This document shows positions 119-18,938 of a DNA stretch of 32,000 nucleotides, piece after piece (within the stretch, counting starts at the first letter, position 1; each line of letters begins with the position of its first letter). The stretch is taken from assembly GCF_016127575.1 (NCBI RefSeq), contig NZ_CP066019.1, positions 540,001 to 572,000 on the forward strand. The letters are read 5' to 3'. The notes beneath the pieces are model-generated. The model was not told the DNA's origin and ran no database searches. It saw only the letters and a list, made by a program, of their open reading frames with translations. Source of the DNA: Cupriavidus necator. Lineage in GTDB: Bacteria > Pseudomonadota > Gammaproteobacteria > Burkholderiales > Burkholderiaceae. Both the position numbers and the translations under genes were made by a program.

Positions 119-1186
119 ATGTATTCGCTGACCATTGAACCGATCGGGCAGACCATCCCCATCGCTCCCGGGCAGACCGTGCTGGACGCCTGCCTGCGCA
201 ACGGCGTGTGGCTGCCCCATGCCTGCTGCCACGGGCTGTGCGCCACCTGCAAGGTGCAGGTGGTGGACGGCGAGGTCGAGCAGGGCGAGGCCTCCAGCTT
301 CGCGCTGATGGATTTCGAGCGCGACAACGGCCAGTGCCTGGCCTGCTGCGCGACCGCGCAGTCGGACCTGGTGATCGAGGCCGACATCGAGGAAGACGCC
401 GATGCGCTGGGCCTGCCGCTGGCCGACTATCGCGCCGAAGTTGTCGAGACGCGCGCCCTGACGCCCACCATCCTGGGCATCTGGCTGCGTGTGAAGGATG
501 GTGGACGCACGACCTTCCAGGCCGGTCAGTACGTCAACCTGAACGTGCCGGGCTGCGACCAGCCGCGTGCGTTCTCGCTGGCCAACGCGCCGGGCGACGA
601 GCTGGTCGAGCTGCACGTGCGGCGCGTGCCGGACGGGCAGGCCACCGGCTACCTGCACGACCAGCTGGCGGTCGGCGACGAATTGTCGTTCTCAGCGCCC
701 TATGGCCGCTTCTTCGTGCGCAAGTCGGCGCAGGTGCCGATGCTGTTCCTCGCGGGCGGCTCCGGCCTGTCCAGCCCGCGCGCGATGATCCTGGACCTGC
801 TGGCCGCCGGCGAGACCCTGCCGATGACGCTGGTGCAGGGCGCGCGCAACCGCGGCGAGCTGTACTACGACGCCGAGTTCCAGGCACTGGCGCAGGCCCA
901 CCCCAACTTCCGCTACGTGCCCGCGCTGTCGGACGAACCCGCCGACAGCGGCTGGAGCGGCGCGCGCGGCTACGTGCATGACGTGCTGCACCAGCTCTAC
1001 GCGCAGGACGGCAATGCCGACTTCCGCGGCCACAAGGCCTACCTGTGCGGGCCGCCGCCGATGATCGAGGCTTGCATCCGCACGCTGATGCAGGGCCGGC
1101 TGTTCGAGGCGGATATCCACACCGAGAAGTTCCTGTCCGCGGCCGATGCGCAGAACAGCGCGCGCAGTCCGCTGTTCAAGATCTGA
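119..1186 (+). CDS. dmpP: Phenol hydroxylase reductase component (P5/DmpP-like): N-terminal plant-type 2Fe-2S ferredoxin fused to an FAD/NAD(P)H oxidoreductase
   Basis: CX4CX2C cluster motif (CCHGLCATC) plus a distal CLACC. RAFSLAN flavin motif and GGSGLSSP nucleotide-binding motif. RBS GGAAGGAGA at 105-113. Followed by a XylT-like ferredoxin and C23O. Confidence 0.9.
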
Positions 1187-1197
1187 GGAGGCCGGCC

Positions 1198-1521
1198 ATG
1201 CATACCGTCGAGATCGCCGGCAGCGGGCTGCGCTACCCCTGCGCGGCGGAGCAGAACCTGCTGCGGGCCATGGAAGTGCTGGGCCAGCGCGGCATCCCCG
1301 CCGGCTGCCGCGGCGGCGGCTGCGGCGTGTGCAAGGTCCGCATCGAAGCCGGCGACTTTCACGCCGGCAAGATGAGCCGCGCCTGCCTGTCCGAAGCGGA
1401 GCAGCGCGACGGACTGGTGCTGGCCTGCAAGACCTACCCGGACAGCGATATCCGCCTGCGGCCGGTGGCCCTGCTGCAGCGCTGCCTGGAAAAGCAGCGG
1501 TGGCGCGAACAGGGCCGGTAG
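1198..1521 (+). CDS. dmpQ: XylT/DmpQ-like 2Fe-2S ferredoxin (catechol 2,3-dioxygenase reactivating ferredoxin)
   Basis: Internal ATG at 1198 of ORF 1045..1521, preceded by GAGGAG at 1185-1190. Motif [11 protein letters not shown]...LACK. Canonical position between the reductase and C23O. Confidence 0.85.
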
Positions 1522-1592
1522 CACGCAAACGAAGCACAAGCAAGGAAGGTGGCACCCACACAACGCCACCCCACCACACCAGGAGACCCATC

Positions 1593-2528
1593 ATGGCATT
1601 GACAGGCGTATTGCGACCGGGGCATGTAGCCCTGCGCGTGCTGGAGCTGGAACCGGCGCTGAAACACTACACCGAGGTACTCGGCTTGATCGAAACCGCG
1701 CGCGATGCGCAGGGCCGGGTGTTCCTGAAGGCATGGGACGAGCACGACCACCACAGCGTGGTGCTGCGCGAGGCCGACAGTCCGGGCATGGACTACATGG
1801 GTTTTCGCGTCGACAGCGGCCACACGCTGGAGCGGCTGGCGCAGGAGGTGGAGCAATCCGGCCTGGCCAGCGATTGCAAGTGGATCGCCGCGGGCGAGCA
1901 CCCGCATACCGGCGTGCGCTTTCGCTTCACCATCCCGACAGGGCATGCGATCGAACTCTTTGCCGACAAGGACAAGCTTGGCTGCAAGACCGGCGACCTC
2001 AATCCCGACCCCTGGCCGGACGACCTGCGCGGCATGGCGCCCAGCCGCTTCGACCACTGCCTGCTGTATGGCGACGATGTCGACGGCACCGTCAAGTTGT
2101 TCCGCGACGTGCTGGGCTTTTCTCTGGCCGAGCAGGTCGTGGCCGGGGCCGACGGCGAGATGCTGATCGGTGCCTTCCTGACCTGCTCGAACAAGGCGCA
2201 CGACATTGCCTTTATCCGCCACCCGGAGAAGAACCGCTTCCACCATGCCTCGTTCCTGCTTGATAACTGGAGCGAAGTGTTGAAGGCGGCCGACATCATC
2301 TCCAAGAAGGACGTGTCGCTCGACATCGGCCCGACCCGTCACGGCATTACGCGTGGCGCGACGATCTACTTCTTCGATCCCTCGGGCAACCGCAACGAGG
2401 TCTTCTCCGGCGGCTATATCCACTACCCGGACAAGCCCACCATCACCTGGACCGATAACGAGCTGGGGCGCGCGATCTTCTACCACGACAGGAAGCTGAA
2501 CGAAGCGTTCTTGAATGTGCTGACCTGA
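1593..2528 (+). CDS. dmpB: Catechol 2,3-dioxygenase (extradiol, type I)
   Basis: ATG at 1593 after AGGAGA. N-terminus [32 protein letters not shown], and the 311-aa length and sequence are typical of XylE/DmpB. The 1146 start in the ORF track adds an R/A-rich junk N-terminus. Confidence 0.93.
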
Positions 2529-2555
2529 GCGCGAACGCTCGCCTCCCGCTCGTTT

Positions 2556-2585
2556 GCTCCCTCTCCCGCTTGCGGGAGAGGGAGC
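2556..2585. repeat. REP-like perfect palindrome GCTCCCTCTCCCGC-TT-GCGGGAGAGGGAGC between C23O and the HMS dehydrogenase gene
   Basis: 14-bp perfect arms read directly from the sequence. It shares the core CCCTCTCCC...GGGAGAGGG with the hairpin at 25698-25723. Confidence 0.8.
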
Positions 2586-2643
2586 ACCCAATCGATGAGC
2601 GGAGGATTGCCGTGCACGAATGCTTCAATACCAGAGAAACAAC

Positions 2644-4098
2644 ATGAAAGACTTCAAGAACTTCATCAACGGCGAGTGGGTCGGCACCGCGCGGACCTTC
2701 GAGAACCGCAATCCGGCCGACAACAGCCTGATCGGCCACGTGCACGAGGCCGGACAGGCCGAGGTCGACGCCGCGGTGCGGGCCGCGCGCAGCGCGCTGC
2801 AGGGACCGTGGGGCCGCATGACGGTGGCGCAGCGGGTCGAGCTGCTGCACGCGGTGGCCGACGGCATCAACCGCCGCTTCGACGAATTCGTGCAGGCCGA
2901 GATTGCCGATACCGGCAAGCCCTTCGGGCTGGCCAGTCATATCGACATCCCGCGCGGCGCGGCCAACTTCAAGGTCTTTGCCGACCTGATCCGCAACGTG
3001 CCGACCGAAAGCTTTGCCATGGACACGCCCGACGGCGGCAAGGCCATCAACTACGCGGTGCGCAGCCCGCGCGGCGTGATCGGCGTGGTGTGCCCGTGGA
3101 ACCTGCCGCTGCTGCTGATGACATGGAAGGTCGGGCCGGCGCTGGCCTGCGGCAACACCGTGGTGGTCAAGCCCTCGGAGGAGACCCCCGCCACCGCGAC
3201 GCTGCTGGGCGAGGTGATGAACGAGGCCGGCGTGCCGCCCGGCGTCTACAACGTGGTGCACGGCTTTGGCCCGGATTCGGCCGGCGCGTTCCTGACCGCG
3301 CACCCGCAGGTCAACGGCATCACCTTCACCGGCGAGACCCGCACCGGCGAGGCCATCATGAAGGCAGCGGCCAACGGCGTGCGGCCGGTGTCGTTCGAGC
3401 TGGGCGGCAAGAACGCGGGCATCGTGTTCGCCGATGCGGATTTCGACAAGGCCGTGGCCGGCATCACGCGCTCGGCGTTCGAGAACAGCGGCCAGGTGTG
3501 CCTGGGCACCGAGCGCGTCTACGTGCAGCGGCCGATCTTCGAGCGCTTTGTCGCCGCGCTGAAGGCGAAGGCCGAGGGCCTGAAGCTGGGTCGGCCCACC
3601 GAGCCCGGCGTGAACATGGGCCCGCTGGTGTCGCACGAGCACCGCGACAAGGTGCTGTCCTACTACCGCAAGGCCGCCGGGGCCGGCGCCACCGTGGTCA
3701 CCGGCGGCGGCGTGCCGCAGATGCCGGGGGCGCTGGCCGAAGGCGCCTGGGTGCAGCCCACCATCTGGACCGGCCTGCCGGAAAGCGCCGCCGTGATCCG
3801 CGAGGAGATCTTCGGGCCGTGCTGCCATATCGCCCCGTTCGACACCGAAGAGGAAGTCATCGCGCTGGCCAACGACACCCCGTACGGCCTGGCCGCCACG
3901 GTCTGGACCGGCGACCTCGGCACCGCGCACCGCATGGGCAGCGCGCTGGACGTTGGCATCTGCTGGATCAATGCCTGGTTCCTGCGCGACCTGCGCACCG
4001 CCTTTGGCGGCGCCAGGCAGTCCGGCATCGGCCGCGAGGGCGGTGTCCATTCGCTCGAGTTCTACACCGAGCTGCGCAACGTCTGCGTCCGCCTGTGA
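2644..4098 (+). CDS. dmpC: 2-hydroxymuconic semialdehyde dehydrogenase (NAD+ aldehyde dehydrogenase family)
   Basis: MKDFKNFINGEWVG... is near-colinear with remembered DmpC/XylG (VVKPSEETP, FELGGKNA, GQVCLGTERVYV, EEIFGPC). The start at 2644 matches the DmpC N-terminus better than 2620. Confidence 0.93.
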   Translation: MKDFKNFINGEWVGTARTFENRNPADNSLIGHVHEAGQAEVDAAVRAARSALQGPWGRMTVAQRVELLHAVADGINRRFDEFVQAEIADTGKPFGLASHIDIPRGAANFKVFADLIRNVPTESFAMDTPDGGKAINYAVRSPRGVIGVVCPWNLPLLLMTWKVGPALACGNTVVVKPSEETPATATLLGEVMNEAGVPPGVYNVVHGFGPDSAGAFLTAHPQVNGITFTGETRTGEAIMKAAANGVRPVSFELGGKNAGIVFADADFDKAVAGITRSAFENSGQVCLGTERVYVQRPIFERFVAALKAKAEGLKLGRPTEPGVNMGPLVSHEHRDKVLSYYRKAAGAGATVVTGGGVPQMPGALAEGAWVQPTIWTGLPESAAVIREEIFGPCCHIAPFDTEEEVIALANDTPYGLAATVWTGDLGTAHRMGSALDVGICWINAWFLRDLRTAFGGARQSGIGREGGVHSLEFYTELRNVCVRL

Positions 4099-4107
4099 GG
4101 TCCCGTC

Positions 4108-4890
4108 ATGCATAACGAACTTATCCTTGAGATCGGCGCCGGCCTGCACCATGCGCTGGCCTCCCGTCGCCCGGTGGCGCCGCTGACCGAATCGTGGCCG
4201 GAGCTGAGCATCGACGATGCCTACCGCATCCAGCTGGCGATGGTGCAGCATCGGCTCGACGCCGGCGAGCGCGTGGTCGGCAAGAAGATCGGTGTGACCA
4301 GCCGCGTGGTGATGGACATGCTCGACGTGCGCCAGCCCGACTTTGGCCACCTGCTGTCCGGCATGGTCTACCCCGACGGCGCGGCGATTCCCGCCGACAC
4401 CCTGATCGCGCCCAAGGCCGAAGGCGAGATTGCCTTCGTGCTGAAGGAAGACCTGGAGGGGCCGGGCGTGACCAATGCCGACGTGCTGCGCGCCACCGCC
4501 TATGTGCTGCCTTGCTTCGAGATCGTCGACTCGCGCATCCGCGACTGGAAGATCCGCATCCAGGACACCGTGGCTGACAACGCATCGTCAGGCGTGTTCG
4601 TGCTGGGCGATGCCGCGGTGGACCCGCGCAGCGTGGACCTGGGCACGGTCGGCATGACGCTGGAGAAAAACGGCGAGATCGTCGCGACCGGCGCCGGCGC
4701 GGCCGCGCTCGGGCATCCCGTCAATGCGGTGGCGTGGCTGGCCAATACGCTTGGCCGGCTGGGCATTGGCCTGAAGCGGGGCGAGGTGATCCTGTCCGGC
4801 TCTCTTGCCGCGATGGTGCCCGTAACCGCCGGCGACCAGCTGCGCATCAGCCTGGGCGGCATCGGCTCGGCCGGCGTGCGCTTCGTCTGA
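4108..4890 (+). CDS. dmpE: 2-oxopent-4-enoate (2-hydroxypenta-2,4-dienoate) hydratase
   Basis: Strong resemblance to XylJ/DmpE (GKKIGVTS, QPDFG, AEGEIAFVL, DSRIRDWKIRIQDTVADNAS, GGIGSAGVRF). Confidence 0.92.
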   Translation: MHNELILEIGAGLHHALASRRPVAPLTESWPELSIDDAYRIQLAMVQHRLDAGERVVGKKIGVTSRVVMDMLDVRQPDFGHLLSGMVYPDGAAIPADTLIAPKAEGEIAFVLKEDLEGPGVTNADVLRATAYVLPCFEIVDSRIRDWKIRIQDTVADNASSGVFVLGDAAVDPRSVDLGTVGMTLEKNGEIVATGAGAAALGHPVNAVAWLANTLGRLGIGLKRGEVILSGSLAAMVPVTAGDQLRISLGGIGSAGVRFV

Positions 4891-4926
4891 ACCCGACCCA
4901 TTTTTCAATTCAGCGCAGGACATGCC

Positions 4927-5715
4927 ATGAATCTGACACACGACACCATTGCCCGGCTCGCCGAGCACCTGGAGAACGCCGAGCTGCAGCGCGAGGCGGT
5001 GCGCAAGATCACCGACGAATACCCGGACATGGACTGGGACGACGCCTACGCCATCCAGGACGCCATCCGCGCGCGCAAGGAGGCGCGCGGCACCCGCATC
5101 GCCGGGCTCAAGATGGGCCTGACTTCGTTCGCCAAGATGCGCCAGATGGGCGTGAGCGACCCGGTGTACGGCTTCCTCACCGACTATGGCGCCTGCATGG
5201 ACGGCGCCGCCATCGATACCGGCACGCTGATCCATCCCAAGGTGGAAGCCGAGATCGCCTTCGTGCTGAAGGCGCCGCTCAAGGGGCCTGGCTGCCATAT
5301 CGGCGACGTGCTGGCCGCGACGGACTTCGTGGTGCCGGCGGTGGAGGTGATCGACTCGCGCTACGAGAACTTCCGCTTCGACCTGAAGAGCGTGATTGCC
5401 GACAACACCTCGTCGGCGCGCTTCGTCGTGGGCGGCACGCACCGCGGCGCCGAGGGGCTGGACCTGAAGAACCTGGGCGTGGTGCTGGAGAAGAACGGCG
5501 AGGTGGTGGCCACCGCGGCCGGCGCGGCGGTGCTCGGGCATCCGGCCAACAGCGTCGCCATGCTGGCCAATATGCTGGGGGCGCGCGGGCGCGAGCTGCC
5601 GGCGGGCACCTTCATCATGACCGGCGGCGTGACCGAGGCCATCGCGGTGGCGGCCGGCGACAACATCACCGTTCGCTACCAGCACCTGGGCACGGTATCG
5701 ATGCGCTTCACCTGA
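4927..5715 (+). CDS. dmpH: 4-oxalocrotonate decarboxylase
   Basis: Resembles XylI/DmpH (GLKMGLTS, VEAEIAFVLKAPL, DSRYENFRFDLKSVIADN, ITVRYQHLGTVSMRF). Confidence 0.92.
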   Translation: MNLTHDTIARLAEHLENAELQREAVRKITDEYPDMDWDDAYAIQDAIRARKEARGTRIAGLKMGLTSFAKMRQMGVSDPVYGFLTDYGACMDGAAIDTGTLIHPKVEAEIAFVLKAPLKGPGCHIGDVLAATDFVVPAVEVIDSRYENFRFDLKSVIADNTSSARFVVGGTHRGAEGLDLKNLGVVLEKNGEVVATAAGAAVLGHPANSVAMLANMLGARGRELPAGTFIMTGGVTEAIAVAAGDNITVRYQHLGTVSMRFT

Positions 5716-5738
5716 ACCGCGTAGCAAGGAGACACACC

Positions 5739-5930
5739 ATGCCAATCATGCAGGTCTTCCTGATCGAAGGCCGTACCGACGAACAGAAGGCGCGCCTGAT
5801 CCGCGCGCTCACCGATGCCGCGGTCGAAGCGGTGGGCGCACCGGTGGAAACCGTGCGCGTGATGATCACCGAGGTGCCGAAGGCGCAGTTCGGCATCGGC
5901 GGCAAGACCGCCACGGAACTGGGCCGCTGA
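5739..5930 (+). CDS. dmpI: 4-oxalocrotonate tautomerase (63 codons, Pro-1 after Met removal)
   Basis: MPIMQVFLIEGRTDEQKARLIRALTDA... The size and N-terminal Pro are diagnostic. ATG at 5739 follows AAGGAGA. Confidence 0.93.
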   Translation: MPIMQVFLIEGRTDEQKARLIRALTDAAVEAVGAPVETVRVMITEVPKAQFGIGGKTATELGR

Positions 5931-5954
5931 CGCCCACGCGATAAGGACAACGAC

Positions 5955-6899
5955 ATGGACATGAAAGCAAGCGGCCACCACAAGGTGGCCATCATCGGCT
6001 CCGGCAATATCGGCACCGACCTGATGATCAAGGTAATGCGCCACGGCCGGAGCCTGGAGATGGGCGCCATGGTGGGCATCGATGCCGCGTCGGACGGGCT
6101 GGCCCGCGCCGCGCGCCTGGGCGTGCCGACCACGGCCGAGGGCATCGACGGGCTGGTCGGCATGCCGGGCTTCGGCGATATCCGCATCGCCTTCGATGCC
6201 ACCTCGGCCGGTGCTCATGCGCATCACAACCGCGTGCTGCAGCAGCACGGCGTGCGCGTGATCGACCTGACGCCGGCGTCGATCGGCCCGTACGTGGTGC
6301 CCGTGGTCAACCTGGACCAGCACCTGGATGCCCCCAACATCAATATGGTCACCTGCGGCGGCCAGGCCACCATCCCCATGGTGGCGGCGGTGTCGCGCGT
6401 GGCCAGAGTGCACTACGCCGAGATCGTGGCGTCGATCTCGAGCAGGTCGGCCGGGCCGGGCACGCGCGCCAATATCGACGAGTTCACCGAGACCACCAGC
6501 CAGGCGCTGTGCTCGGTGGGCGGCGCCGCGCGCGGCAAGGCCATCATCGTGCTCAACCCGGCGGAACCGCCGCTGATGATGCGCGACACGGTCTTCACGT
6601 TGTCGGAGGACGGCGATGAAGCGGAAATTGCGGCGAGCGTCGAAGCGATGGCGCAGGCAGTGCAGGGCTACGTACCGGGTTACCGGCTCAAGCAGCGCGT
6701 GCAGTTCGAGCGTATCGCCGCGTCGGCGCCATTGAATATCCCCGGACTGGGACCGATGAGCGGGCTCAAGACCTCGATCTTCCTGGAAGTGGAGGGCGCC
6801 GCCCATTACCTGCCGGCCTATGCCGGCAACCTCGACATCATGACCAGCGCCGCACTGGCCTGCGCCGAGCGCCTGGCCGAGACCCGGCTGTCCGCATGA
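5955..6899 (+). CDS. dmpF: Acetaldehyde dehydrogenase (acylating)
   Basis: [32 protein letters not shown] and [23 protein letters not shown] match DmpF. AAGGA lies 7 nt upstream of the ATG. Confidence 0.93.
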
Positions 6900-6916
6900 G
6901 CCGCAGGGAGACAAAG

Positions 6917-7981
6917 ATGACCGCACAACCCACCAAGAAGCTCTACATCTCGGACGTGACGCTGCGCGACGGCAGCCACGCCATCCGCCACCAGTACAGC
7001 CTGGAGCACGTGCGCCGCATCGCGGCCGCGCTCGACGCCGCGCGCGTGGATTCGATCGAGGTCGCGCACGGCGACGGGCTGTCGGGCTCCAGCTTCAACT
7101 ACGGCTTTGGCGCCCATACCGACCTGGAATGGATCGCCGCCGTGGCCGAGACCGTGCGCCATGCCCGCGTGGCCACGCTGCTGCTGCCGGGCGTGGGCAC
7201 CTTGCACGACCTGCGCGCCGCCTATGATGCCGGCGCGCGCGTGGTGCGCGTGGCCACGCACTGCACCGAAGCCGATGTCTCGCGCCAGCACATCGAATAT
7301 GCGCGCGAACTCGGCATGGACACCGTCGGCTTCCTGATGATGAGCCACATGACCACGCCCGCGGCGCTGGCGCAGCAGGCGAAGCTGATGGAAAGCTACG
7401 GCGCCCAGTGCGTGTATGTGGTCGATTCCGGCGGCGCGCTGGGCATGCAGGACGTGCGCGAGCGCTTCCGCGCCTTCAAGGACGTGCTCAGGCCGGAAAC
7501 CCAGACCGGCATGCACGCCCATCACAACCTGAGCCTGGGCGTGGCCAATTCCATCGTCGCCGTGGAAGAGGGCTGCGACCGCGTCGACGCCAGCCTGGCC
7601 GGCATGGGTGCCGGCGCCGGCAACGCCCCGCTGGAAGTCTTTATCGCCGCCGCCGAACGCCTGGGCTGGCAGCACGGCTGCGACCTCTACACGCTGATGG
7701 ATGCCGCCGACGACATCGTGCGCCCGCTGCAGGACCGCCCGGTGCGCGTCGACCGCGAGACCCTGGCGCTGGGCTACGCCGGGGTCTATTCAAGCTTCCT
7801 GCGCCATGCCGAGGCCGCCGCGGCGCGCTACGGCCTGGGCACGGTCGACATCCTCGTCGAGCTGGGCCGGCGGCGCATGGTGGGCGGGCAGGAAGACATG
7901 ATCGTGGATGTGGCGCTGGATTTGCTGGCGCGGCGCAGTGCTCAGGCGGGGCAGGCAGTGCCGTCGGCGGCGGTGGCCTGA
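6917..7981 (+). CDS. dmpG: 4-hydroxy-2-oxovalerate aldolase
   Basis: [43 protein letters not shown] and [18 protein letters not shown] match DmpG. The 6917 start follows AGGGAG. An alternative ATG at 6896 overlaps the dmpF stop. Confidence 0.92.
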
Positions 7982-10797: not shown

Positions 10798-12027
<1,230 letters not shown>

Positions 12028-12053
12028 ACGGCGGTTGCCCTCGCCGCCGAGCG

Positions 12054-12099
12054 GCCTCTGGCAGGGGCATCCGGCACTGAATCCGCCCTGCGCAGAGGC
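12054..12099. terminator. Long imperfect stem-loop between the convergent rtcB and lipoprotein genes (possible bidirectional terminator; no U-tract)
   Basis: GCCTCTGGCAGGG (12054-12066) pairs with CCCTGC-g-CAGAGGC (12086-12099): 13 bp with one bulge and a 19-nt loop. Confidence 0.3.
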
Positions 12100-12117
12100 A
12101 TTGCAGCCGGGGCCACT

Positions 12118-12843
12118 CTACTGGAAGATCAGCGTGCTCACCGGTTGTCCGTTTGCACCGAAGAAAGTGAACTTGGACGAGACAAAGCTGATGTTTCCGC
12201 TGGTGTCGATCCGGAACGTGGTTTCCTCCTCTCCGACCCGGGCATTGTTGTTATCGAACTCTGTGTTGAGGAATGTCACGAGGAGCGTGGTCCCAGAATC
12301 GGGTGCCACGGAAAAGGACTGGGTGAGCGAGCCCAGTTTCGCGGCTTGCGTGTTGTCCGAGAAAATCGTGGCGGTTGCCAGCGGGCCGGAGTCGCCAGCC
12401 TTTACAGTTGCCGGGAATGTGTAGTCGGCGAAAGCCGCATAACCATCCGCCCCCTGGTCGATAGCGACCACGGCAAAGGTTGCCGAGTTTCTGAAGATAA
12501 ACCTGGCGCCCGAAAACGGCTCCGAGTTTCCGTTCGTGATGACTGTGCCTGTGACGGTTTCGGTGGTCTTCAGGACAACGGCGCTGTTCAGCGTGGCGGA
12601 ATCGGCTGGCGCCGCGTTGAGCGTTCCTGAGCCTGAAACTGGCTTATTCTCGACTGAACCGGAGATGGAAAAATTCGCGGTTATGCCGTTGGCCGCCAGC
12701 GCCGCCATGGCGGTGGTGAGCGGCACTGTCAGAGTTTGCGCCGGCGGACTCGCTGCCTCGCTGCTGCCGCCGTCATCTCCGCCGCCGCCACAGCTGCCAA
12801 GTAAGAACGAAAATGCGAACAAAAATAAGAATCTCTTGGGCAT
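12118..12843 (-). CDS. Orphan lipoprotein of unknown function (beta-strand-rich, S/T/G/N/A-rich) in a low-GC islet
   Basis: MPKRFLFLFAFSFLLGSC has a signal peptide and lipobox, followed by a GGGGDDGGS linker. AGGAG lies 6 nt upstream of the ATG. G+C is visibly lower than the flanks. I recognise no family. Confidence 0.7.
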   Translation of the reverse strand: MPKRFLFLFAFSFLLGSCGGGGDDGGSSEAASPPAQTLTVPLTTAMAALAANGITANFSISGSVENKPVSGSGTLNAAPADSATLNSAVVLKTTETVTGTVITNGNSEPFSGARFIFRNSATFAVVAIDQGADGYAAFADYTFPATVKAGDSGPLATATIFSDNTQAAKLGSLTQSFSVAPDSGTTLLVTFLNTEFDNNNARVGEEETTFRIDTSGNISFVSSKFTFFGANGQPVSTLIFQ

Positions 12844-13353
12844 CGCCGGCTCCTGACGGAAGTGCCCCGGATTCGAAATCTTTGTAAGGCGCGCCGCGGC
12901 AGGAAAGGAAGGCTCTGGCGTAAATCGCAGGCTTCTCGTTCCTGCCGATCCTCAAAATGCCAGGCTGCCGGGAAGGCTTGGCTTACGATGGCGTCGCGAA
13001 AATTCTCGCGCAACAAATATGCCATCCATGCCATCGCGTTTGATTCTTCTACGTTTTTTCAAGCGTGTATATTCGGCAAACATGCGAAACAACAAGATCG
13101 GTTCCGTTTTTGATACGCGCCGTCATCGGCGCCCCATCGCTGCAGGTGAACCTTGATGATGTCGGCGACGGTCGGATTCTGATCCGGCCTGATGGCCAGT
13201 TGGCATGCGCCCCCCCGGTGCCACCGGATTGTCGCGGCCATCCCGCAGGCACGAACGCGCTCTCACGGGGCTGGCTTGCGCCCGCGTGGCAACGATGTAC
13301 TACGGGAAGTCGGGGGATCCGTCTGCTGTGGCCTGGCCGGTGCCCCAGCCGGG

Positions 13354-14346
13354 TCAGTCGACGAGCAGATTTATCTTCGTCGTGAATTTCTGCCAGCGAT
13401 CGATGTCGGCGCTCACCAGCTTCTGGAATTCAGCGGGCGTGCTTGTCGTCGTGGCAAAGCCGAGCTGCGTCAGCGATGCCTTGACCTCGGGCCTGGCGAT
13501 GGCCCTGGCGATTTCCGTGTTGAGCCTTTGCACGATCTCGGGCGGCGTATTTGCGGGGGCGAGGATGCCGAACCACTGGTCGACGTCATAGCCGGCCACG
13601 CCAAGCTCGCTCACGGTGGGTACGTCGGGCAGGAACGGCGAGCGTGCCTTCGACGTGACGGCCAGCGCGCGCAGCTTGTTGCTTTTCAGGTAGGGGATGG
13701 TGTTGGTCAGCGTGTTGACGCTGACATCGGCCTGGTTGCCGAGCACGTCGGCGATGGCGGGGGCGCAACCCTTGTACGGCACGTGCAGCATGTCCATCCT
13801 TGCCGAGACCTTGAGCAGTTCGCCGGCCAGATGCTGCGGGGTGCCGTTGCCGCACGACGCATAGCTGGGGGGTGATGGGCTCTTGCCCGCCGCCAGCAGG
13901 TCGCTGAAGGTGCGGAGTTTCGAGTGCGATGGCACGGCGATCACCGATGGCACCGAAGCGAAGGTGATGACGGCGCTGAAATCGGACTTGGGATTGAACT
14001 GCAGCTTCTTGAAGACGCTCGGGTTGATGGCAAAGCTGCTGTTGACAATGAGCAGCGTATAGCCGTCGGCAGGACTCTTGGCGACGAACTCGGCGCCAAT
14101 ATTGCCGCTGGCGCCGGGCCGGTTGTCGATCACCACCGGCTGCCCCAGCGACTTGCTGATGTCGGCCCCGATCAGGCGCGCGAGAGAATCGGTCCCCCCT
14201 CCGGCCGGGAACGTCACCACCATGCGGATCGGCTTTTGCGGGAAGGTACTGGCGATATTGGCTTCGGCGCGCCCGGGCAGGGTGCCCAGGCTGCCTGCGA
14301 CAAACAGGAGCGATGCCAGACTGCTGACGACGGATAGGGGTCTCAT
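13354..14346 (-). CDS. Bug-family (TctC-like) periplasmic solute-binding protein of a tripartite tricarboxylate transporter
   Basis: Signal peptide, then KPIRMVVTFPAGGGTDSLARL...VIDNRPGASGNIGAEFVAKSPADGYTLL, the Bug/TctC signature. GAGG lies 7 nt upstream of the ATG. The gene starts 43 nt downstream of the fusion gene on the same strand. Confidence 0.9.
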   Translation of the reverse strand: MRPLSVVSSLASLLFVAGSLGTLPGRAEANIASTFPQKPIRMVVTFPAGGGTDSLARLIGADISKSLGQPVVIDNRPGASGNIGAEFVAKSPADGYTLLIVNSSFAINPSVFKKLQFNPKSDFSAVITFASVPSVIAVPSHSKLRTFSDLLAAGKSPSPPSYASCGNGTPQHLAGELLKVSARMDMLHVPYKGCAPAIADVLGNQADVSVNTLTNTIPYLKSNKLRALAVTSKARSPFLPDVPTVSELGVAGYDVDQWFGILAPANTPPEIVQRLNTEIARAIARPEVKASLTQLGFATTTSTPAEFQKLVSADIDRWQKFTTKINLLVD

Positions 14347-14389
14347 TGATATGCCTCGTCGGTTAGGGTGAAGGAAGCGGGAAAGCCGG

Positions 14390-16195
14390 TCAATCGGGGT
14401 CTATACGCACCGCCTGGCAGCACTCGCCGCCGGCGCGCACCAGTGCTGCAGCCGCCTCTAGCGCTTCAGCGGAGTCCGAGTGGATACGGTAGAGCGGTTG
14501 CCCTGGCGCCACCTTTGCACCGATCGCGCACAGCATGTCGACCCCGGCACCGCCATCGCGCGGCGCGCCGGCGGCGCGCGCCACGCCGGAAATCTGCAGG
14601 CCATCGACGCCCGCCACCCGGCCCCGCGTGGTGGCGGGAACGACCAGCGTATGCGTACCCGGCGCCACTGGATCGCAGCGGACGCCCTGCGCGGCGGCGA
14701 TGCGATCGAACGCGGCCCTGGCCTTGCCTTCATGCAGCAGCGCCGCCGCAATTTGCATGCCGTGTTCGGGGGAGTCCACGCGGGGATCGAATGCGATGAT
14801 TTCGCCGGCAAAGCGCAGGGCCTTGTCGCGCAGGTCGGCGGGCGCATCGGGAGCGTTGTCGAGCACGAGTCGGACGTCGCGCACTTCCAGTGCGGGGCCG
14901 ATGCCGCGGCCGATCGGGCCGCTGCCGTCCGTGACCAGTGCGCGTACGTGCAGGCCCAGTCCCTTGCCGACGTGTTCGAACAGCGCGCCCAGCGCCTCGG
15001 CGTCGGCGCGTGTTGCCAGCTTGGTTTGCGGCCCGTAGGGCAGGTCGACAATGACGTGGGTGGCGCCGGCGGTGTACTTTTTCGACAGGATCGACGCCAC
15101 CGACCAGCGCCGCGAATCGAGCCGCAGCGGTCGCGTGATGGCGTTCATCACATCGTCGACCACGGAATGGTTCAGCCGTCCGTTCCAGGCGATGCAGGCG
15201 CGTGCCTGGGCCACGCATCGGCGCACGTCTTCATGCGCCAGGTCGACCCGTGCGATGGTCTCCATGGCATCGGCGGTGCCGGCGGCAGAGGTGATCGCGC
15301 GTGACGATGTCTTGGGCATCGCCAGCCCGTAGGCCGCGACGATCGGCACCACGATCAGCGTGATGCGGCTGCCGGGAACGCCGCCCATCGAATGCTTGTC
15401 GACGACTACCGGTTCGTCCCAGTCGATGCGGGGTGTGAAGGCGGTACGCGCGCGCGCCAGAGCCACCACTTCCTCGTCCGTGAGCGTGCGGGTTGCGGCA
15501 ACCAGGAACTCGGTCAGCTCGGCCTCGGTGTAGCGCCCGGCGATGGCGTCCTGCAGCACGGCAACGTAGGCCGCTTCGTCGAGCGGCTCGCCGCGCAGCT
15601 TGGCCATAAGGTTGGTGCGGCTGGCCGGCCGTTCGGCGGCGGATGTCCTGGTGCCGGTGCGCAAGGCTTCGACAAAGCGTGCCGTGCCTGCTTCCAGCGT
15701 GCTGTGGTTCGACACCGTGATACACGGGACGTGTGGCGGCACCGGAGCTCCCGCGCGTGCCACGCGGCTGGCAACCTGGTCGCCCGATTCCCGCCCGCGT
15801 GCGGCAATGCGCCGGGCAAGCACGTCATGCGGTGCCGTTACCAGGACCACCACGAAACGGGGCAAGCGCGCCGCGAGTTCCGCGATGACGCCGCGCGAGC
15901 CATTGGCCACGACGTTGCGGCCGCGTTCGAGCTCGCACATCAGGGACTTGGGCAATCCGTAGCGCAGGTCGTGCGCGTCCCAGGTCACCAGGAACTCTCC
16001 GCTTCGCTGGCGCCGCGCGAACTCGGCCTCCGTGACACCTTCGTGCTCTTCGCCAGCAGACCCGTCGGGACGCGTGATGACGCGCCGCGCAAAAACGTAG
16101 TCGCCGTCGAGCGCGGCACGTGCACCGTCGATCAGGGAGTCCTTGCCAGCGCCACTGGGCCCCACAACAAAGAAGAATGTGCCGGTCGCCTTCAT
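14390..16195 (-). CDS. Bifunctional fusion: N-terminal ribose-1,5-bisphosphate phosphokinase (PhnN-like, ~aa 1-185) plus C-terminal family-2 thymidine phosphorylase / AMP phosphorylase-like domain (~aa 195-601)
   Basis: The N-terminus has the [11 protein letters not shown]-loop, RRVITRP..AG.EH and NGSR, as in E. coli PhnN. The C-terminus has [13 protein letters not shown] and [19 protein letters not shown], which match the AMP-phosphorylase-like family rather than DeoA (DKHSTGGVGD / GHTGGTLD). It is a single uninterrupted ORF. Confidence 0.85.
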
Positions 16196-16200
16196 GAGTA

Positions 16201-16279
16201 TTACCTTAGATGTCGAAGTTATGTGGCTATGCTAGCACCGGCCAGGGGGGTGTCAAGATAAGTTCGATGTCTAAGGTAA
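16201..16279 (-). promoter_or_regulatory. Promoter/operator module of the phnN-fusion gene: sigma70-like -35 TTGACA and -10 TAGCAT (minus strand) bracketed by inverted operator arms TTACCTTAGAtgTCGAA / TTCGAtgTCTAAGGTAA
   Basis: Plus-strand TGTCAA at 16252-16257 and ATGCTA at 16229-16234, with a 17-nt spacer. Arms at 16201-16217 and 16263-16279 match 15 of 17. The same architecture recurs at 18066-18141. Confidence 0.65.
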
Positions 16280-16549
16280 TGCAAACAACGGGCCAGCGCC
16301 CGCAAATCCAGTGTGTACGCGGGATTCGCGGACTTGTAGGGGAAAACACGGGGATACGGGTGCGCAGTGACGGTGCCTCATGCATGGGTTGCGGGCATCG
16401 TGCACTGATGGAGTGAACGCTACATGGAGAGGCATGGCCGATGAAGCGGTGATGTCGGCGTGCGAGCGCCGGAGGCGCTATCATGTGCGCTGTCGCTGGC
16501 ACCGGGCCGTCCGCTGCCGCATGCATACGCTCTACTTTCCCTCACGACT

Positions 16550-17095
16550 ATGGCCACAAAGAAACCGGATGCTCCGGTCCCGATCACGCCTGCGGATGAA
16601 GCCGATGAAGAACGGCTTGCCCACCTGGTGAAGGATGCCGCCCGGGCCTACATCCGGGCGCTGCAGCTGCGGCTGGCGGAACATTCGGTTTCGTATGGCC
16701 ACTGGACCATCCTGCGTATCCTGTGGCGCCATGACGGCGTGTCGCAGCGAGAGCTGAGCGAACGCGCCGGGGTGACCGAGCCGACGACGTTTGCGGCAGT
16801 CAAGGCGCTGGAGGCGCTGGGCTACGTGGAACGCACGCATCTTCCTGGCAACAGGAAGAAGGTGCATGTGTTCCTGAGCAAGACCGGACGCGGGCTGCGC
16901 CGCAAGCTTGAACCGCTGGCGACCGAGGTGAATGAACTCAGCGTGGCAGGGCTGAGCGAAGAAGACGTGCTGACCACGCGCCGCGTGCTGATCACGATTG
17001 CGAAGCGGCTGGTCGCCGACGAAGCCGCGTCGGCGGAACATGGCCGGCGGGTCCCGTCCACCCAGGAGGTAGGGCGCCTGCTCTCGGACCTGTAG
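16550..17095 (+). CDS. MarR-family transcriptional regulator
   Basis: Winged-helix core HWTILRILWRHDGVSQRELSERAGVTEPTTFAAVKALEALGYVERTHLPGNRKKVHVFLSKTGR. Start chosen at MATKK (16550). The RBS is weak and 16460 is an alternative start. Confidence 0.85.
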   Translation: MATKKPDAPVPITPADEADEERLAHLVKDAARAYIRALQLRLAEHSVSYGHWTILRILWRHDGVSQRELSERAGVTEPTTFAAVKALEALGYVERTHLPGNRKKVHVFLSKTGRGLRRKLEPLATEVNELSVAGLSEEDVLTTRRVLITIAKRLVADEAASAEHGRRVPSTQEVGRLLSDL

Positions 17096-17195
17096 ACGAC
17101 CCGCAACGGAAAAGACCCTCGCCGGGCGAGACGGCAAGGGTGAATGCCTTGGGTAGAAGGCGTGAATCGGTCAGGGGGCCTGAGCCCCGCGGGTG

Positions 17196-18029
17196 TCAGG
17201 CTTCGTCGAGCCCGATGTCCACGGCAGGGGCCGACTGGGTGATCTTGCTCGTGGAGATGTAGTCCACGCCCGTTTCCGCCACGGCCCGGATCGTTTCCAG
17301 GCGGATGCCGCCTGACGCCTCGACTTTGGTCCGGCCATTGACGATCTGCACGGCTTCCTTCATGTCGGGCACCGACATGTTGTCCAGCATGATCACGTCG
17401 ACACCGGTTGCCAGTGCTTCGTGCACCTGTTCCAGCCGGTCGCATTCCACTTCCAGCTTGGTCAGCACGGGCAGCTTGCGGCGCACGCGTGCCACGGCGG
17501 CAGCGATGCTGCCGCACACGGCGATGTGGTTGTCCTTGATCATCACGCCGTTGTCCAGGCTCAGCCGGTGGTTCAGGCCGCCGCCGCAGGTCACCGCATG
17601 CTTTTCCAGCGCGCGCAGGCCCGGCGTGGTCTTGCGGCTGTCGATCAGGCGCGCCTTGGTATGGGCAATGGCCTGGGCATAGGTTGCCGTATGGTTGGCG
17701 ATGCCGCACAGACGCTGCATGATGTTCAGCGCGGTGCGCTCGGCCGTCAGGACGCTGCGTGCATTGCCGCTCACGTTAAGCAGCACCGCGCCTTTTTCAA
17801 CCTTGTCGCCGTCGGCGACGCGCACATCGACCGACAGCGTCGGATCGTAGCGCGCGAAGATGCGTGCCGCCACGTCGATGCCGGCGATAAGCATCGGCTC
17901 GCGGGCGTTCATGCAGAAGGTGCCGGTCTCTCCCGGTTCAATCATGGTCTGGACGGTCAAGTCGCAGATGCCGATGTCTTCGGTCAGCCAGAGGTCGATC
18001 AGCTTGTCGGTGGCGAAAATGTCGTACAT
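17196..18029 (-). CDS. Nicotinate-nucleotide pyrophosphorylase (carboxylating) / quinolinate phosphoribosyltransferase family protein (NadC paralog; ModD-like not excluded)
   Basis: LTEDIG.CDLT, TAERTALNIMQRLCGIA, SRKTTPGLRALEKHAVTCGGGLNHRLSLDNGVMIKDNH, EVEC, IMLDNM and EASGGI are type II PRTase motifs. CAGGAG lies 7 nt upstream of the ATG. Confidence 0.85.
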   Translation of the reverse strand: MYDIFATDKLIDLWLTEDIGICDLTVQTMIEPGETGTFCMNAREPMLIAGIDVAARIFARYDPTLSVDVRVADGDKVEKGAVLLNVSGNARSVLTAERTALNIMQRLCGIANHTATYAQAIAHTKARLIDSRKTTPGLRALEKHAVTCGGGLNHRLSLDNGVMIKDNHIAVCGSIAAAVARVRRKLPVLTKLEVECDRLEQVHEALATGVDVIMLDNMSVPDMKEAVQIVNGRTKVEASGGIRLETIRAVAETGVDYISTSKITQSAPAVDIGLDEA

Positions 18030-18065
18030 GAAGGGCTCCTGAACGGTGGTTGCGGTACCTCATAA

Positions 18066-18141
18066 ATCTTAGAGATCGAAGTACATGGCGCAATACTAGC
18101 CCTTTCAGGCGCCATGTCAAGTAATATTCGAGATCTAAGAT
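18066..18141 (-). promoter_or_regulatory. Second copy of the promoter/operator module, upstream of the nadC paralog: -35 TTGACA, -10 TAGTAT, flanking arms ATCTTAGAgaTCGAA / TTCGAgaTCTAAGAT
   Basis: Plus-strand TGTCAA at 18115-18120 and ATACTA at 18093-18098, with a 16-nt spacer. Arms at 18066-18080 and 18127-18141. It aligns base-for-base with 16205-16275 over about 72 nt. Confidence 0.65.
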
Positions 18142-18152
18142 AAAGCGCAAAC

Positions 18153-18938
18153 CTACCGCGCAAACTGCCCCAGCACCGTCCCGACCGCCTCCAGCCCCGC
18201 CCCGATCATATGCTGCATGTAGGTGCCCATCTGCGGCATTACCAGCATCAGCACCAGCAGGCCGCCGGACAGCGTGACCGGGAAGCCGACCGCAAAGATC
18301 GACAGTTGCGGCGAGGCGCGGTTGAGGATGCCCATCGCCAGGTTCAGCGTCAGCAGCGCCGCGATCATCGGCAGCGCCAGCAGCAGCCCGGACGAGAACA
18401 CCATGCCGCCGGCGCGGGCCACGGCCATGGCGCCGCCGGCGGACAGCGGCGTGCCGCCGATGGGCAGGCCGCTGAAGCTGTCGACCAGCGCGCCCAGCAT
18501 CAGCAGGTGGCCGTCCAGCGCCAGGAACAGCAGCATCGCGATCAGGTTCAGGAAGCGCGACAGCACCATGGTCTGGCCGCCGGCGGCGCGGTCGAAGAAC
18601 GAGGCAAAGGACAGGCCCATCTGCAGGCCGATGATTTCGCCGGCCTGCTGCACGGTGGCAAAGACCAGCCGCATGGCAAAGCCCGTGGCCAGGCCGATGC
18701 CGACTTCGTTGAGGATGATCATCAGCCCGCCGAAGGAGTACACCGGCACCACCGGCAGCTGCGCGATGGTGGGCGACACCACCACCGCGACCATCGCGGA
18801 CAGCGCGATCTTGGCGCGGCGCGGGATGGTGGACTCACCGAACAGCGGCGCGGTGCCGATCAGGGCCAGGATGCGGAAGAAAGGCCACAGGAACGCCGCG
18901 AGCCAGCTGTAGAGCTGGGCTGAGGTGAATTCGACCAC
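18153..18938 (-). CDS. fliR: Flagellar type III export gate protein FliR
   Basis: Polytopic membrane protein with an N-terminus (LAAFLWPFFRILALIGTAPLFG) typical of FliR. Last gene of the fliLMNOPQR order. Confidence 0.92.
   Translation of the reverse strand: MVEFTSAQLYSWLAAFLWPFFRILALIGTAPLFGESTIPRRAKIALSAMVAVVVSPTIAQLPVVPVYSFGGLMIILNEVGIGLATGFAMRLVFATVQQAGEIIGLQMGLSFASFFDRAAGGQTMVLSRFLNLIAMLLFLALDGHLLMLGALVDSFSGLPIGGTPLSAGGAMAVARAGGMVFSSGLLLALPMIAALLTLNLAMGILNRASPQLSIFAVGFPVTLSGGLLVLMLVMPQMGTYMQHMIGAGLEAVGTVLGQFAR

Follow-up and report, generated by a model that had tools for sequence, protein, structure and literature searches.

In Bordetella, the quinolinate salvage locus nadQ-nadC-bug69 contains the gene of a periplasmic Bug protein and nadC, which encodes quinolinate phosphoribosyltransferase (QaPRT) (Brickman 2017, as cited in Sorci et al. 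2024, PMC11452294). The Bordetella pertussis proteins Bug27 and Bug69 bind quinolinate (pyridine-2,3-dicarboxylate) with dissociation constants of 136 and 70 nM, respectively, and Bug27 orthologues of Variovorax and Jezberella adjoin nadC and phnN, where PhnN was read as the supplier of phosphoribosyl pyrophosphate (PRPP) for QaPRT; a 'Cupriavidus cluster 7' is found among the NAD-context clusters of the same study (Sorci et al. 2024, PMC11452294). The archaeal AMP phosphorylase converts AMP, CMP or UMP and inorganic phosphate (Pi) into the free base and ribose-1,5-bisphosphate (R15P), and PhnN of Escherichia coli converts R15P into PRPP (PMC9700705). Moreover, E. coli PhnN is a PRPP-synthase bypass that feeds NAD synthesis (Hove-Jensen et al. 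2003, as reported in papers that cite it). Here, we analysed a stretch of 32,000 nucleotides from Cupriavidus necator, hereafter referred to as the window, which carries the genes of a PhnN::phosphorylase fusion protein, a MarR-family regulator, a Bug protein and a second NadC, hereafter NadC*. The genes of NadC* and of the fusion protein form a pair that is conserved in three proteobacterial classes. We put at about 0.6 the probability that the C. necator locus is a MarR-repressed, inducible module for using exogenous quinolinate, in which the PRPP spent by NadC* would be regenerated by the module itself.

The window corresponds to chromosome 2 of C. necator H16 (AM260480.1, ~619-641 kb), which encodes the fusion protein without a single residue changed. 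The published locus tags of acnB (H16_B0568) and of the fli cluster (H16_B0561-B0567) were used as anchors, and the NadC-like gene is H16_B0560, as confirmed by the supplement of the RehMBEL1391 model. It follows that marR is H16_B0559, the fusion gene H16_B0558 and bug H16_B0557, and the gene order in the window is B0557, B0558, B0559 and B0560. The fusion gene is an uninterrupted open reading frame (ORF) of 601 amino acids on the minus strand (14390-16195). The bug ORF, of 330 amino acids (13354-14346), lies 43 nt downstream of it on the same strand. No terminator-like site was found in the 43-nt gap, and bug is probably co-transcribed with the fusion gene. The marR gene is located on the plus strand (16550-17095) and is divergent from the fusion gene; it codes for 181 residues from the ATG used by gene callers. 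Just beyond it, nadC* (17196-18029, minus strand, 277 residues) is convergent with marR. A sequence-only reading of this DNA had reported these ORFs, the gap and the orientations, and each of them was found at its place. The routine NCBI annotation names B0558 PhnN or thymidine phosphorylase and B0560 NadC. Both genes were dispensable in rich medium and in fructose minimal medium by transposon-directed insertion-site sequencing (TraDIS), a result that is uninformative on the function of nadC, since cross-feeding led to a miscall of nadA itself as non-essential.

The N-terminal domain of H16_B0558 (residues 1-~183; 15647-16195, minus strand) is a PhnN-type ribose 1,5-bisphosphate phosphokinase, predicted to form PRPP. 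It matches the PhnN model TIGR02322 with 174.8 bits against a cutoff of 156, and residues 5-179 align with profile positions 1-177 of 179. The P-loop GPSGAGKDS and the segment NGSR vary little or not at all in an alignment of 13 homologues. This PhnN domain is encoded outside any C-P lyase (phnGHIJKLMNP) operon; its adjoining genes are bug, marR, nadC and fli, and no phn genes were seen in 80 related loci.

The C-terminal domain (residues ~185-601; 14393-15643, minus strand) resembles nucleoside 5'-monophosphate (NMP) phosphorylases and belongs to thymidine phosphorylase family 2 (TP2). It passes the model NF003338 'thymidine phosphorylase' (PRK04350) with 667.9 bits, where the cutoff is 434. 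All the models of DeoA and of pyrimidine-nucleoside phosphorylase (PyNP) failed, with 106.6 of 570.7 bits for TIGR02643, 158.6 of 269 for NF004490 and 150.7 of 409 for TIGR02644. The nearest relative by sequence in the Protein Data Bank (PDB) is the AMP phosphorylase of Thermococcus (4GA4, 4GA5 and 4GA6), at 252 bits, compared with 115 for human thymidine phosphorylase (TP) and 71 for E. coli DeoA. The domain is 37% identical to archaeal AMP phosphorylase and has in common with it the motif HS(M/I)GGVPG and a second motif. An AlphaFold model of the fusion protein (pLDDT 85.9, pTM 0.68) has folds that agree with the domain calls, and a Foldseek search with it placed AMP phosphorylase at ranks 1-2 with TM-scores of 0.78-0.92, the best being 4ga4 at 0.92. 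The model bears on the folds of the domains and not on channelling. Thus the profile, PDB sequence and fold searches all place the C-terminal domain with AMP phosphorylase and TP2, as the sequence-only reading had proposed, and its claim of a single ORF that joins a PhnN-type kinase to a nucleoside-phosphorylase fold is borne out by scores above both the TIGR02322 and the NF003338 cutoffs. A DeoA-type thymidine phosphorylase was ruled out by the DeoA model scores and by the closer similarity to AMP phosphorylase.

A multimerisation domain of ~80-85 residues at the N-terminus of the phosphorylase is absent in the 601-residue protein and is kept in relatives of ~680 residues (P0074, P0092 and P0117; alignment columns ~190-280). 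More than 3,700 homologues of the fusion protein were scored in the database search, and their NCBI names are 'PhnN' or 'thymidine phosphorylase'. After clustering at 50%, most of the nearest relatives of this domain are fusions of 590-690 residues, and standalone enzymes of ~500 residues appear from ~54% identity downward. Two longer proteins, P0180 and P0190 (934-1017 residues), have a catalytic domain with apparent large intein-like insertions, as judged by reading the sequences.

NadC* (17196-18029, minus strand) matches the nadC equivalog model TIGR00078 with 316.5 bits against a cutoff of 198.4. When aligned with the Thermus thermophilus QaPRT (1x1o), it has counterparts of the segments ERTALN, SRKTTPGLR, NHR, KDNH, EVE, LDN and EASGG, which we take, by analogy with the Mycobacterium tuberculosis QaPRT, to contact quinolinate and PRPP. 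Since NadC* passes the equivalog cutoff and these segments align, its substrate is expected to be quinolinate or a molecule very similar to it. NadC* and its orthologues carry 'TSKI(T/N)Q' in place of the canonical C-terminal 'GALTHS' of QaPRT, a signature of this clade that reads 'TSKITQS' in the window protein. The 'GALTHS' segment presumably lies near the site of the PRPP 5-phosphate. The genome-scale model RehMBEL1391 assigns H16_A3037 (nadC) and H16_B0560 (unknown) to EC 2.4.2.19, and H16_A3037 is located beside nadA (H16_A3038). H16_A3037 is the housekeeping nadC, and B0560, for which that role was rejected, is a second copy. The NadC of the window is hence a paralog, as the sequence-only reading had called it, and not the sole copy in the genome.

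To survey the neighbourhood of the fusion gene, one genome per species was scanned for relatives of the fusion protein, which gave 80 loci, and the window proteins were then mapped onto them. Three contigs end before the upstream region, leaving 77 informative loci. NadC* is encoded directly upstream of the fusion gene, or separated from it only by marR, in 75 of these 77, and it is truly absent upstream in only two, both from Pseudomonas. In 52 of the 80 loci, nadC* immediately precedes the fusion gene in the same orientation (50 counted, together with L083 and L084, for which a start estimate had mis-set the gap). The gap between the two genes, measured in 50 loci, has a median of 16 nt and is 5-55 nt in 49 of them and 140 nt in one. 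In 23 further loci, all from Cupriavidus, only a divergent marR separates the two genes. The pair is found in Burkholderiaceae, Comamonadaceae, Alcaligenaceae, Pseudomonas and marine Alphaproteobacteria, and thus in Beta-, Gamma- and Alphaproteobacteria. Between Cupriavidus and Caballeronia, NadC* is 75-77% identical and the fusion protein 58-62%. The claimed link of the fusion gene with the nadC paralog is therefore almost obligatory. The idea of a conserved unit of four genes did not hold, given that MarR is restricted to the Cupriavidus loci and a Bug27-like gene occurs in 33 of the 80 loci; the conserved unit is the nadC*-phnN::phosphorylase gene pair. In Cupriavidus, an inserted marR parts the two genes and the promoter/operator has been duplicated, an arrangement that would keep them co-regulated.

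The duplicated promoter/operator is seen at 16200-16280, in front of the fusion-bug operon, and at 18062-18145, in front of nadC*, both on the minus strand and 73% identical to each other. Each module has two copies of the palindrome CTTnGAnnTCnAAG, ~57 nt apart, which makes four sites, starting at 16205, 16262, 18068 and 18126. In the fusion-bug module, the palindromes (16205-16218 and 16262-16275) flank a -35 element TTGACA (16256-16251) and a -10 element TAGCAT (16234-16229), and the promoter-proximal palindrome overlaps the ribosome-binding region. In the nadC* module, the palindromes (18068-18081 and 18126-18139) flank TTGACA (18120-18115) and TAGTAT (18098-18093). These are the only two sigma-70-like promoter matches in 13000-18300, one per module, with a spacing of 16 nt and 10 of 12 consensus positions each. 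The CTTnGAnnTCnAAG pattern has seven strand-matches in the window where 0.56 is expected, a number reached in none of 100 shuffles. The four module sites, two of which are also matched on the reverse strand, account for six of these; the remaining match lies at 24728 and has two mismatches.

H16_B0559 (16550-17095, plus strand) has a winged-helix MarR domain (PF01047, 52 bits) and, with palindromes that flank the -35 and -10 elements, is predicted to bind these operators. All the Cupriavidus loci with this MarR carry all four operator sites at the same relative positions, and loci without it have none. Such a phylogenetic footprint argues strongly, if indirectly, for control of both promoters by H16_B0559, presumably as a repressor. 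The shared promoter/operator module of the fusion gene and the nadC paralog, which the sequence-only reading had noticed, is in this way tied to MarR in every Cupriavidus locus, and the places of the marR gene, divergent from the fusion gene, and of the NadC-family gene just beyond it agree with that reading. No close MarR structure of a characterised protein was found in the PDB, where the best match has 46 bits; NicR/BpsR-like chains, those of 6PCO and 6PCP (BpsR), score 32 bits. A terminator-like hairpin with a T-run lies after fliR at 18145-18161 (minus strand) and would insulate nadC* from the flagellar operon. A similar one is located just upstream of the fusion-bug module (16288-16303, minus strand). 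Because such a hairpin stands directly upstream of each module, the duplicated segment may have included the upstream terminator. A further hairpin with a T-run, which has a stem of 10 pairs, 7 of them G-C, lies downstream of nadC* (17115-17141, minus strand). In Caballeronia, which is without the Cupriavidus-type MarR, another perfect palindrome, CTTAGAGCnCTAAG, is found ~200 nt upstream of nadC* (L031:5959, L032:5948 and L044:5833), possibly as the site of another regulator.

H16_B0557 (13354-14346, minus strand) is a Bug/TctC periplasmic binding protein (PF03401 TctC, 233 bits), and the claim of a Bug-family gene 43 nt downstream of the fusion gene is correct. It belongs to the Bug27/Bug69 subgroup. 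Its best PDB match is Bug27 (2QPQ), at 364 bits, and Bug proteins with other ligands reach at most 206. It is 56% identical to the Bordetella Bug27, which is as close as Bug69 is to Bug27. The six contact residues of Bug27 that can be mapped unambiguously, G21, T22, C136, Q142, C165 and T183, are identical in H16_B0557. At N227 of Bug27 it has Asp; the published numbers 'Asn228' and 'Phe12' could not be mapped without ambiguity. H16_B0557 thus falls in a group in which quinolinate binding was found experimentally, and the suggestion that it may bind a pyridine carboxylate gains from this. Comparative genomics and the quinolinate binding published for Bug27 and its group give good support to the functional linkage proposed from the sequence.

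The domain identities, the paralogy of NadC*, its near-obligate linkage to the fusion gene, the shared operator and the relatedness to Bug27 are directly supported, and on this basis we infer the catalytic steps, the direction of flux, the MarR ligand and the choice of NMP as follows. The Bug27-type periplasmic protein would capture quinolinate. NadC* would then convert quinolinate and PRPP into nicotinate mononucleotide (NaMN), CO2 and pyrophosphate (PPi). The C-terminal domain of H16_B0558 would phosphorolyse an NMP to the base and R15P, and its PhnN domain would form PRPP from R15P and ATP, so that PRPP synthase would not be needed. MarR would sit on the two palindromes of each promoter, and its ligand would release both promoters and induce nadC* and fusion-bug together. 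The channel from NMP through R15P to PRPP, as well as the identity of the NMP, is conjectural.

For this NMP, we are split about evenly between the ordinary NMPs (AMP, CMP or UMP), with salvage into NAD, and NaMN, with a closed cycle. The former extends the archaeal chemistry in the simplest way and would be physiologically awkward, because NAD synthesis needs little PRPP and re-salvage of the adenine would consume the PRPP gained. In the latter, NadC* would form NaMN, CO2 and PPi from quinolinate and PRPP, the phosphorylase domain would split NaMN with Pi into nicotinate and R15P, and the PhnN domain would return R15P, with ATP, to PRPP and ADP. The ribose phosphate would be a recycled carrier, chemical activation would come from transient N-ribosylation, and the net outcome would be an ATP-driven decarboxylation of quinolinate to nicotinate, which could enter catabolism through NicAB-like hydroxylases or be salvaged. 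Taken as a whole, this cycle is possible and rather doubtful. It would give a reason for joining kinase and phosphorylase in one protein, for the rarity of this fusion without a dedicated NadC and for the altered segment in the presumed base pocket. It would also explain the recurrent importers, the Mo-hydroxylases annotated as nicotinate dehydrogenase and the decarboxylases beside the pair. The altered segment, the NicAB-like Mo-hydroxylases and the UbiD genes that flank the pair in Alphaproteobacteria point toward a catabolic role; none of them is decisive.

Several observations weigh against a quinolinate module with its own PRPP supply. The fusion protein scores 351.6 bits with the AMP phosphorylase equivalog model TIGR03327, under the cutoff of 535. 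A segment that is invariant in the fused clade differs from the corresponding segment of archaeal AMP phosphorylase. This segment, which corresponds to the Y168/R171 region of E. coli TP, presumably lines the base pocket in TP and PyNP, and with such a difference the substrate may not be AMP. The small PRPP demand of NAD synthesis would leave a dedicated supply not obviously needed for mere salvage, and the gain in PRPP would be nil if the adenine from AMP were re-salvaged by Apt. The standalone TP2 genes inspected (P0138 and the Dongia and Azospirillum contexts) adjoin neither nadC nor phnN, and the link to NadC is therefore specific to the PhnN-fused clade. A Prs-like::TP2 fusion exists as well (P0148, 724 residues); it would equally fit PRPP as the channelled metabolite, and with both kinds of fusion in existence the TP2 family has been wired repeatedly to PRPP-forming enzymes. 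The supplements of two H16 RNA-seq papers contain no entry for the genes of the module, and our literature searches turned up no paper on a PhnN::phosphorylase fusion.

The surroundings of the pair differ between lineages. Alternative importers of organic anions are found beside it, namely an ACS-family major facilitator superfamily (MFS) protein in Caballeronia, Paraburkholderia and Pandoraea, a tripartite ATP-independent periplasmic (TRAP) DctM fusion, and an ATP-binding cassette (ABC) system in Pseudomonas. NicAB-type two-subunit Mo-hydroxylases are encoded immediately upstream of nadC* in four loci of the Polaromonas/Rhodoferax type; three Pandoraea and four Cupriavidus species have NicAB-like ones near the pair as well. 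JGI, and in one case NCBI, gives homologues the name 'nicotinate dehydrogenase subunit B'. The enzyme consists of a [2Fe-2S] subunit of 171 residues and a molybdenum cofactor (MoCo) subunit of ~1215 residues with C-terminal cytochrome c domains, and it occurs in three separate lineages: at L067:1774-5944 and at the contig edges of L063, L064 and L066; upstream in L035, L037 and L043; and ~1.3 kb downstream of bug in L016, L019, L020 and L022.

In metagenome-assembled genomes (MAGs) of marine Alphaproteobacteria (L050, L053, L046, L059, L075 and L080), genes for two UbiD-family decarboxylases, for an Amidohydro_2 protein and for a thiamine pyrophosphate (TPP) enzyme flank the pair, in what looks like a cluster for the decarboxylation of (hetero)aromatic polycarboxylates. 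A succinate-glutarate-type CoA-transferase gene and a glutaryl-CoA-dehydrogenase-like gene are found nearby in the same loci. In Pseudomonas (L083:9048-10223 and L084), a long-form fusion of ~694 residues is preceded by an ABC transporter, with an SsuA/NMT1-type binding protein nearby, and by nadC*, and it is followed by a ProB-like protein composed of an amino-acid kinase and a PUA domain (TIGR01027, 228 bits).

Some neighbourhoods suggest a different role, in which the pair would serve NAD+/ADP-ribose conflict or homeostasis and would rebuild NaMN and NAD from breakdown products of the ribose-bisphosphate type after the action of a predicted NADase. In 19 betaproteobacterial loci, none of them from Cupriavidus, an orthologous gene with an FRG domain (PF08867) is found no more than ~4 kb away from the pair, with identities of 55-95% between taxa. 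Its protein matches the phage-defence candidate PDC-S15 of PADLOC at 165 bits, and FRG has been described as a putative NADase/effector of the ADP-ribosyltransferase (ART) superfamily (PMC9503650). Examples are L068:8793-9596, L033:8849-9649, L047:8809-9570 and L067:8814-9575, with 15 more loci, all outside the window; the orientation of the gene varies, and in some loci it directly follows the pair within one operon. However, no FRG gene is present in the window or in any Cupriavidus locus, and the fusion protein, NadC* and MarR gave no meaningful match to PADLOC models. The FRG-containing loci of Comamonadaceae also have a Bug27-like quinolinate binder, which fits uptake, and control by a MarR-type small-molecule regulator together with stable chromosomal synteny would be atypical of defence islands. 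We consider this role quite improbable.

It is also unlikely, in our judgement, that the phosphorylase-fold domain is itself a TrpD-like phosphoribosyltransferase, using PRPP made in cis on another base or on an aromatic amine, with NadC* as a parallel consumer of PRPP. The sequence-only reading had offered this as its alternative, and TrpD does share the fold, as its structures were matched at E ~1e-11. Moreover, PRPP is the only metabolite common to PhnN::TP2 and Prs::TP2 fusions such as P0148; the AMP released by Prs could, however, equally be the substrate of a phosphorylase. The TrpD model TIGR01245 gave a weak match of 35.1 bits against a cutoff of 199, and the TrpD structures rank far below those of AMP phosphorylase and PyNP, which rules out a TrpD identity for this domain and disfavours the alternative. 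The PYNP_C domain is present, the motifs shared with AMP phosphorylase are retained, and without an NMP phosphorylase the PhnN domain would have no evident source of R15P in the module. A chance adjacency of a redundant nadC (B0560) and an ordinary enzyme of nucleoside or nucleotide catabolism (B0558) would agree with the dispensability of both genes in TraDIS and with their routine NCBI names. This is very hard to reconcile with linkage in 75 of the 77 informative loci from three proteobacterial classes, with 49 of 50 measured gaps at 5-55 nt, with operator-promoter modules that are duplicated where marR splits the pair, and with two distinct nadC loci in H16, and we give it next to no weight.

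Near the start of the window, positions 119-7981 of the plus strand hold a complete catechol meta-cleavage set of the dmp type, with a reductase component, catechol 2,3-dioxygenase, 2-hydroxymuconic semialdehyde dehydrogenase, hydratase, 4-oxalocrotonate-type decarboxylase, acetaldehyde dehydrogenase and aldolase. We considered this flanking aromatic cluster as a 3-hydroxyanthranilate pathway that makes quinolinate and rejected the idea, as the cluster is an ordinary catechol meta-cleavage one and is unrelated to quinolinate formation. The GC content is 0.60-0.62 at 12001-14000 and ~0.68 elsewhere. In a strain with an identical fusion protein (L002), genes for a TonB receptor, FecR and an extracytoplasmic function (ECF) sigma factor replace, downstream of bug, those for a 241-residue protein and RtcB of L001. 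With wholly different genes after bug in L002, the module abuts a strain-variable junction.

If the proposed use of quinolinate is right, it would give a function to a widespread bifunctional enzyme that is currently named just 'PhnN' or 'thymidine phosphorylase', and a first bacterial role to the AMP-phosphorylase family, tying it to R15P and PRPP metabolism. It would also provide a reason for a second nadC in many soil and aquatic Proteobacteria. Should NaMN be the substrate of the phosphorylase domain, the closed cycle would be a new route for a pyridine dicarboxylate, namely a decarboxylation cycle on a nucleotide carrier. As a chassis, C. necator H16 would gain a MarR/operator switch responsive to quinolinate or pyridines and a source of PRPP independent of PRPP synthase. 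H16 is tractable for direct tests, and a ΔnadA strain exists (PMC9166356).

In comparison with known systems, the module is a relative of the quinolinate salvage loci that is built around a so far uncharacterised bifunctional enzyme. The nic cluster of Pseudomonas putida, for nicotinate catabolism, has the NicAB hydroxylase and the MarR-type regulator NicR. The module resembles it in having a MarR-type regulator together with putative pyridine-carboxylate genes and, in Polaromonas/Rhodoferax, Pandoraea and four Cupriavidus species, NicAB-like Mo-hydroxylases beside the pair; it differs in that the window has no nic genes and its MarR, at 32 bits, is not specifically NicR/BpsR-like. Its link to nicotinate catabolism is hypothetical. 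From the archaeal AMP (NMP) phosphorylase of the pentose bisphosphate pathway (TK0352/TK0353 type), the same chemistry may be expected on account of the 37% identity, the TM-score of 0.92 and the shared motifs. Unlike that enzyme, the fusion protein falls below the TIGR03327 cutoff, is without the N-terminal oligomerisation domain and has a different invariant segment in the presumed base pocket. Furthermore, the neighbourhood showed neither an R15P isomerase nor a form III Rubisco partner, and R15P would go to PRPP and not, as in the archaeal pathway, to ribulose-1,5-bisphosphate (RuBP).

Like the Bordetella nadQ-nadC-bug69 locus (Brickman 2017, as cited in Sorci et al. 2024), the module links a Bug27/69-type protein to QaPRT. 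However, where that locus has NadQ, the module has a MarR and a duplicated operator for it, and nadC* is a second copy in a prototroph competent for de novo synthesis, whereas the Bordetella nadC is the sole copy of an auxotroph. The Variovorax and Jezberella bug27-nadC-phnN clusters have the same link between binder and QaPRT, with phnN adjoining (PMC11452294). The idea of such a module is thus partly in the literature already: the view that it had not been characterised as a unit does not stand for the bug27-nadC-phnN adjacency and the supply of PRPP, and stands for the phosphorylase domain, which is not mentioned in that study. In contrast to the clusters as described there, the 'phnN' of the window is a 601-residue fusion with an NMP-phosphorylase-like domain. 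Like E. coli PhnN, its kinase is above the equivalog cutoff and R15P-derived PRPP would be linked functionally to the QaPRT step, but it is encoded outside a phn operon, is fused to its presumed supplier of R15P and is genetically tied to a dedicated nadC paralog.

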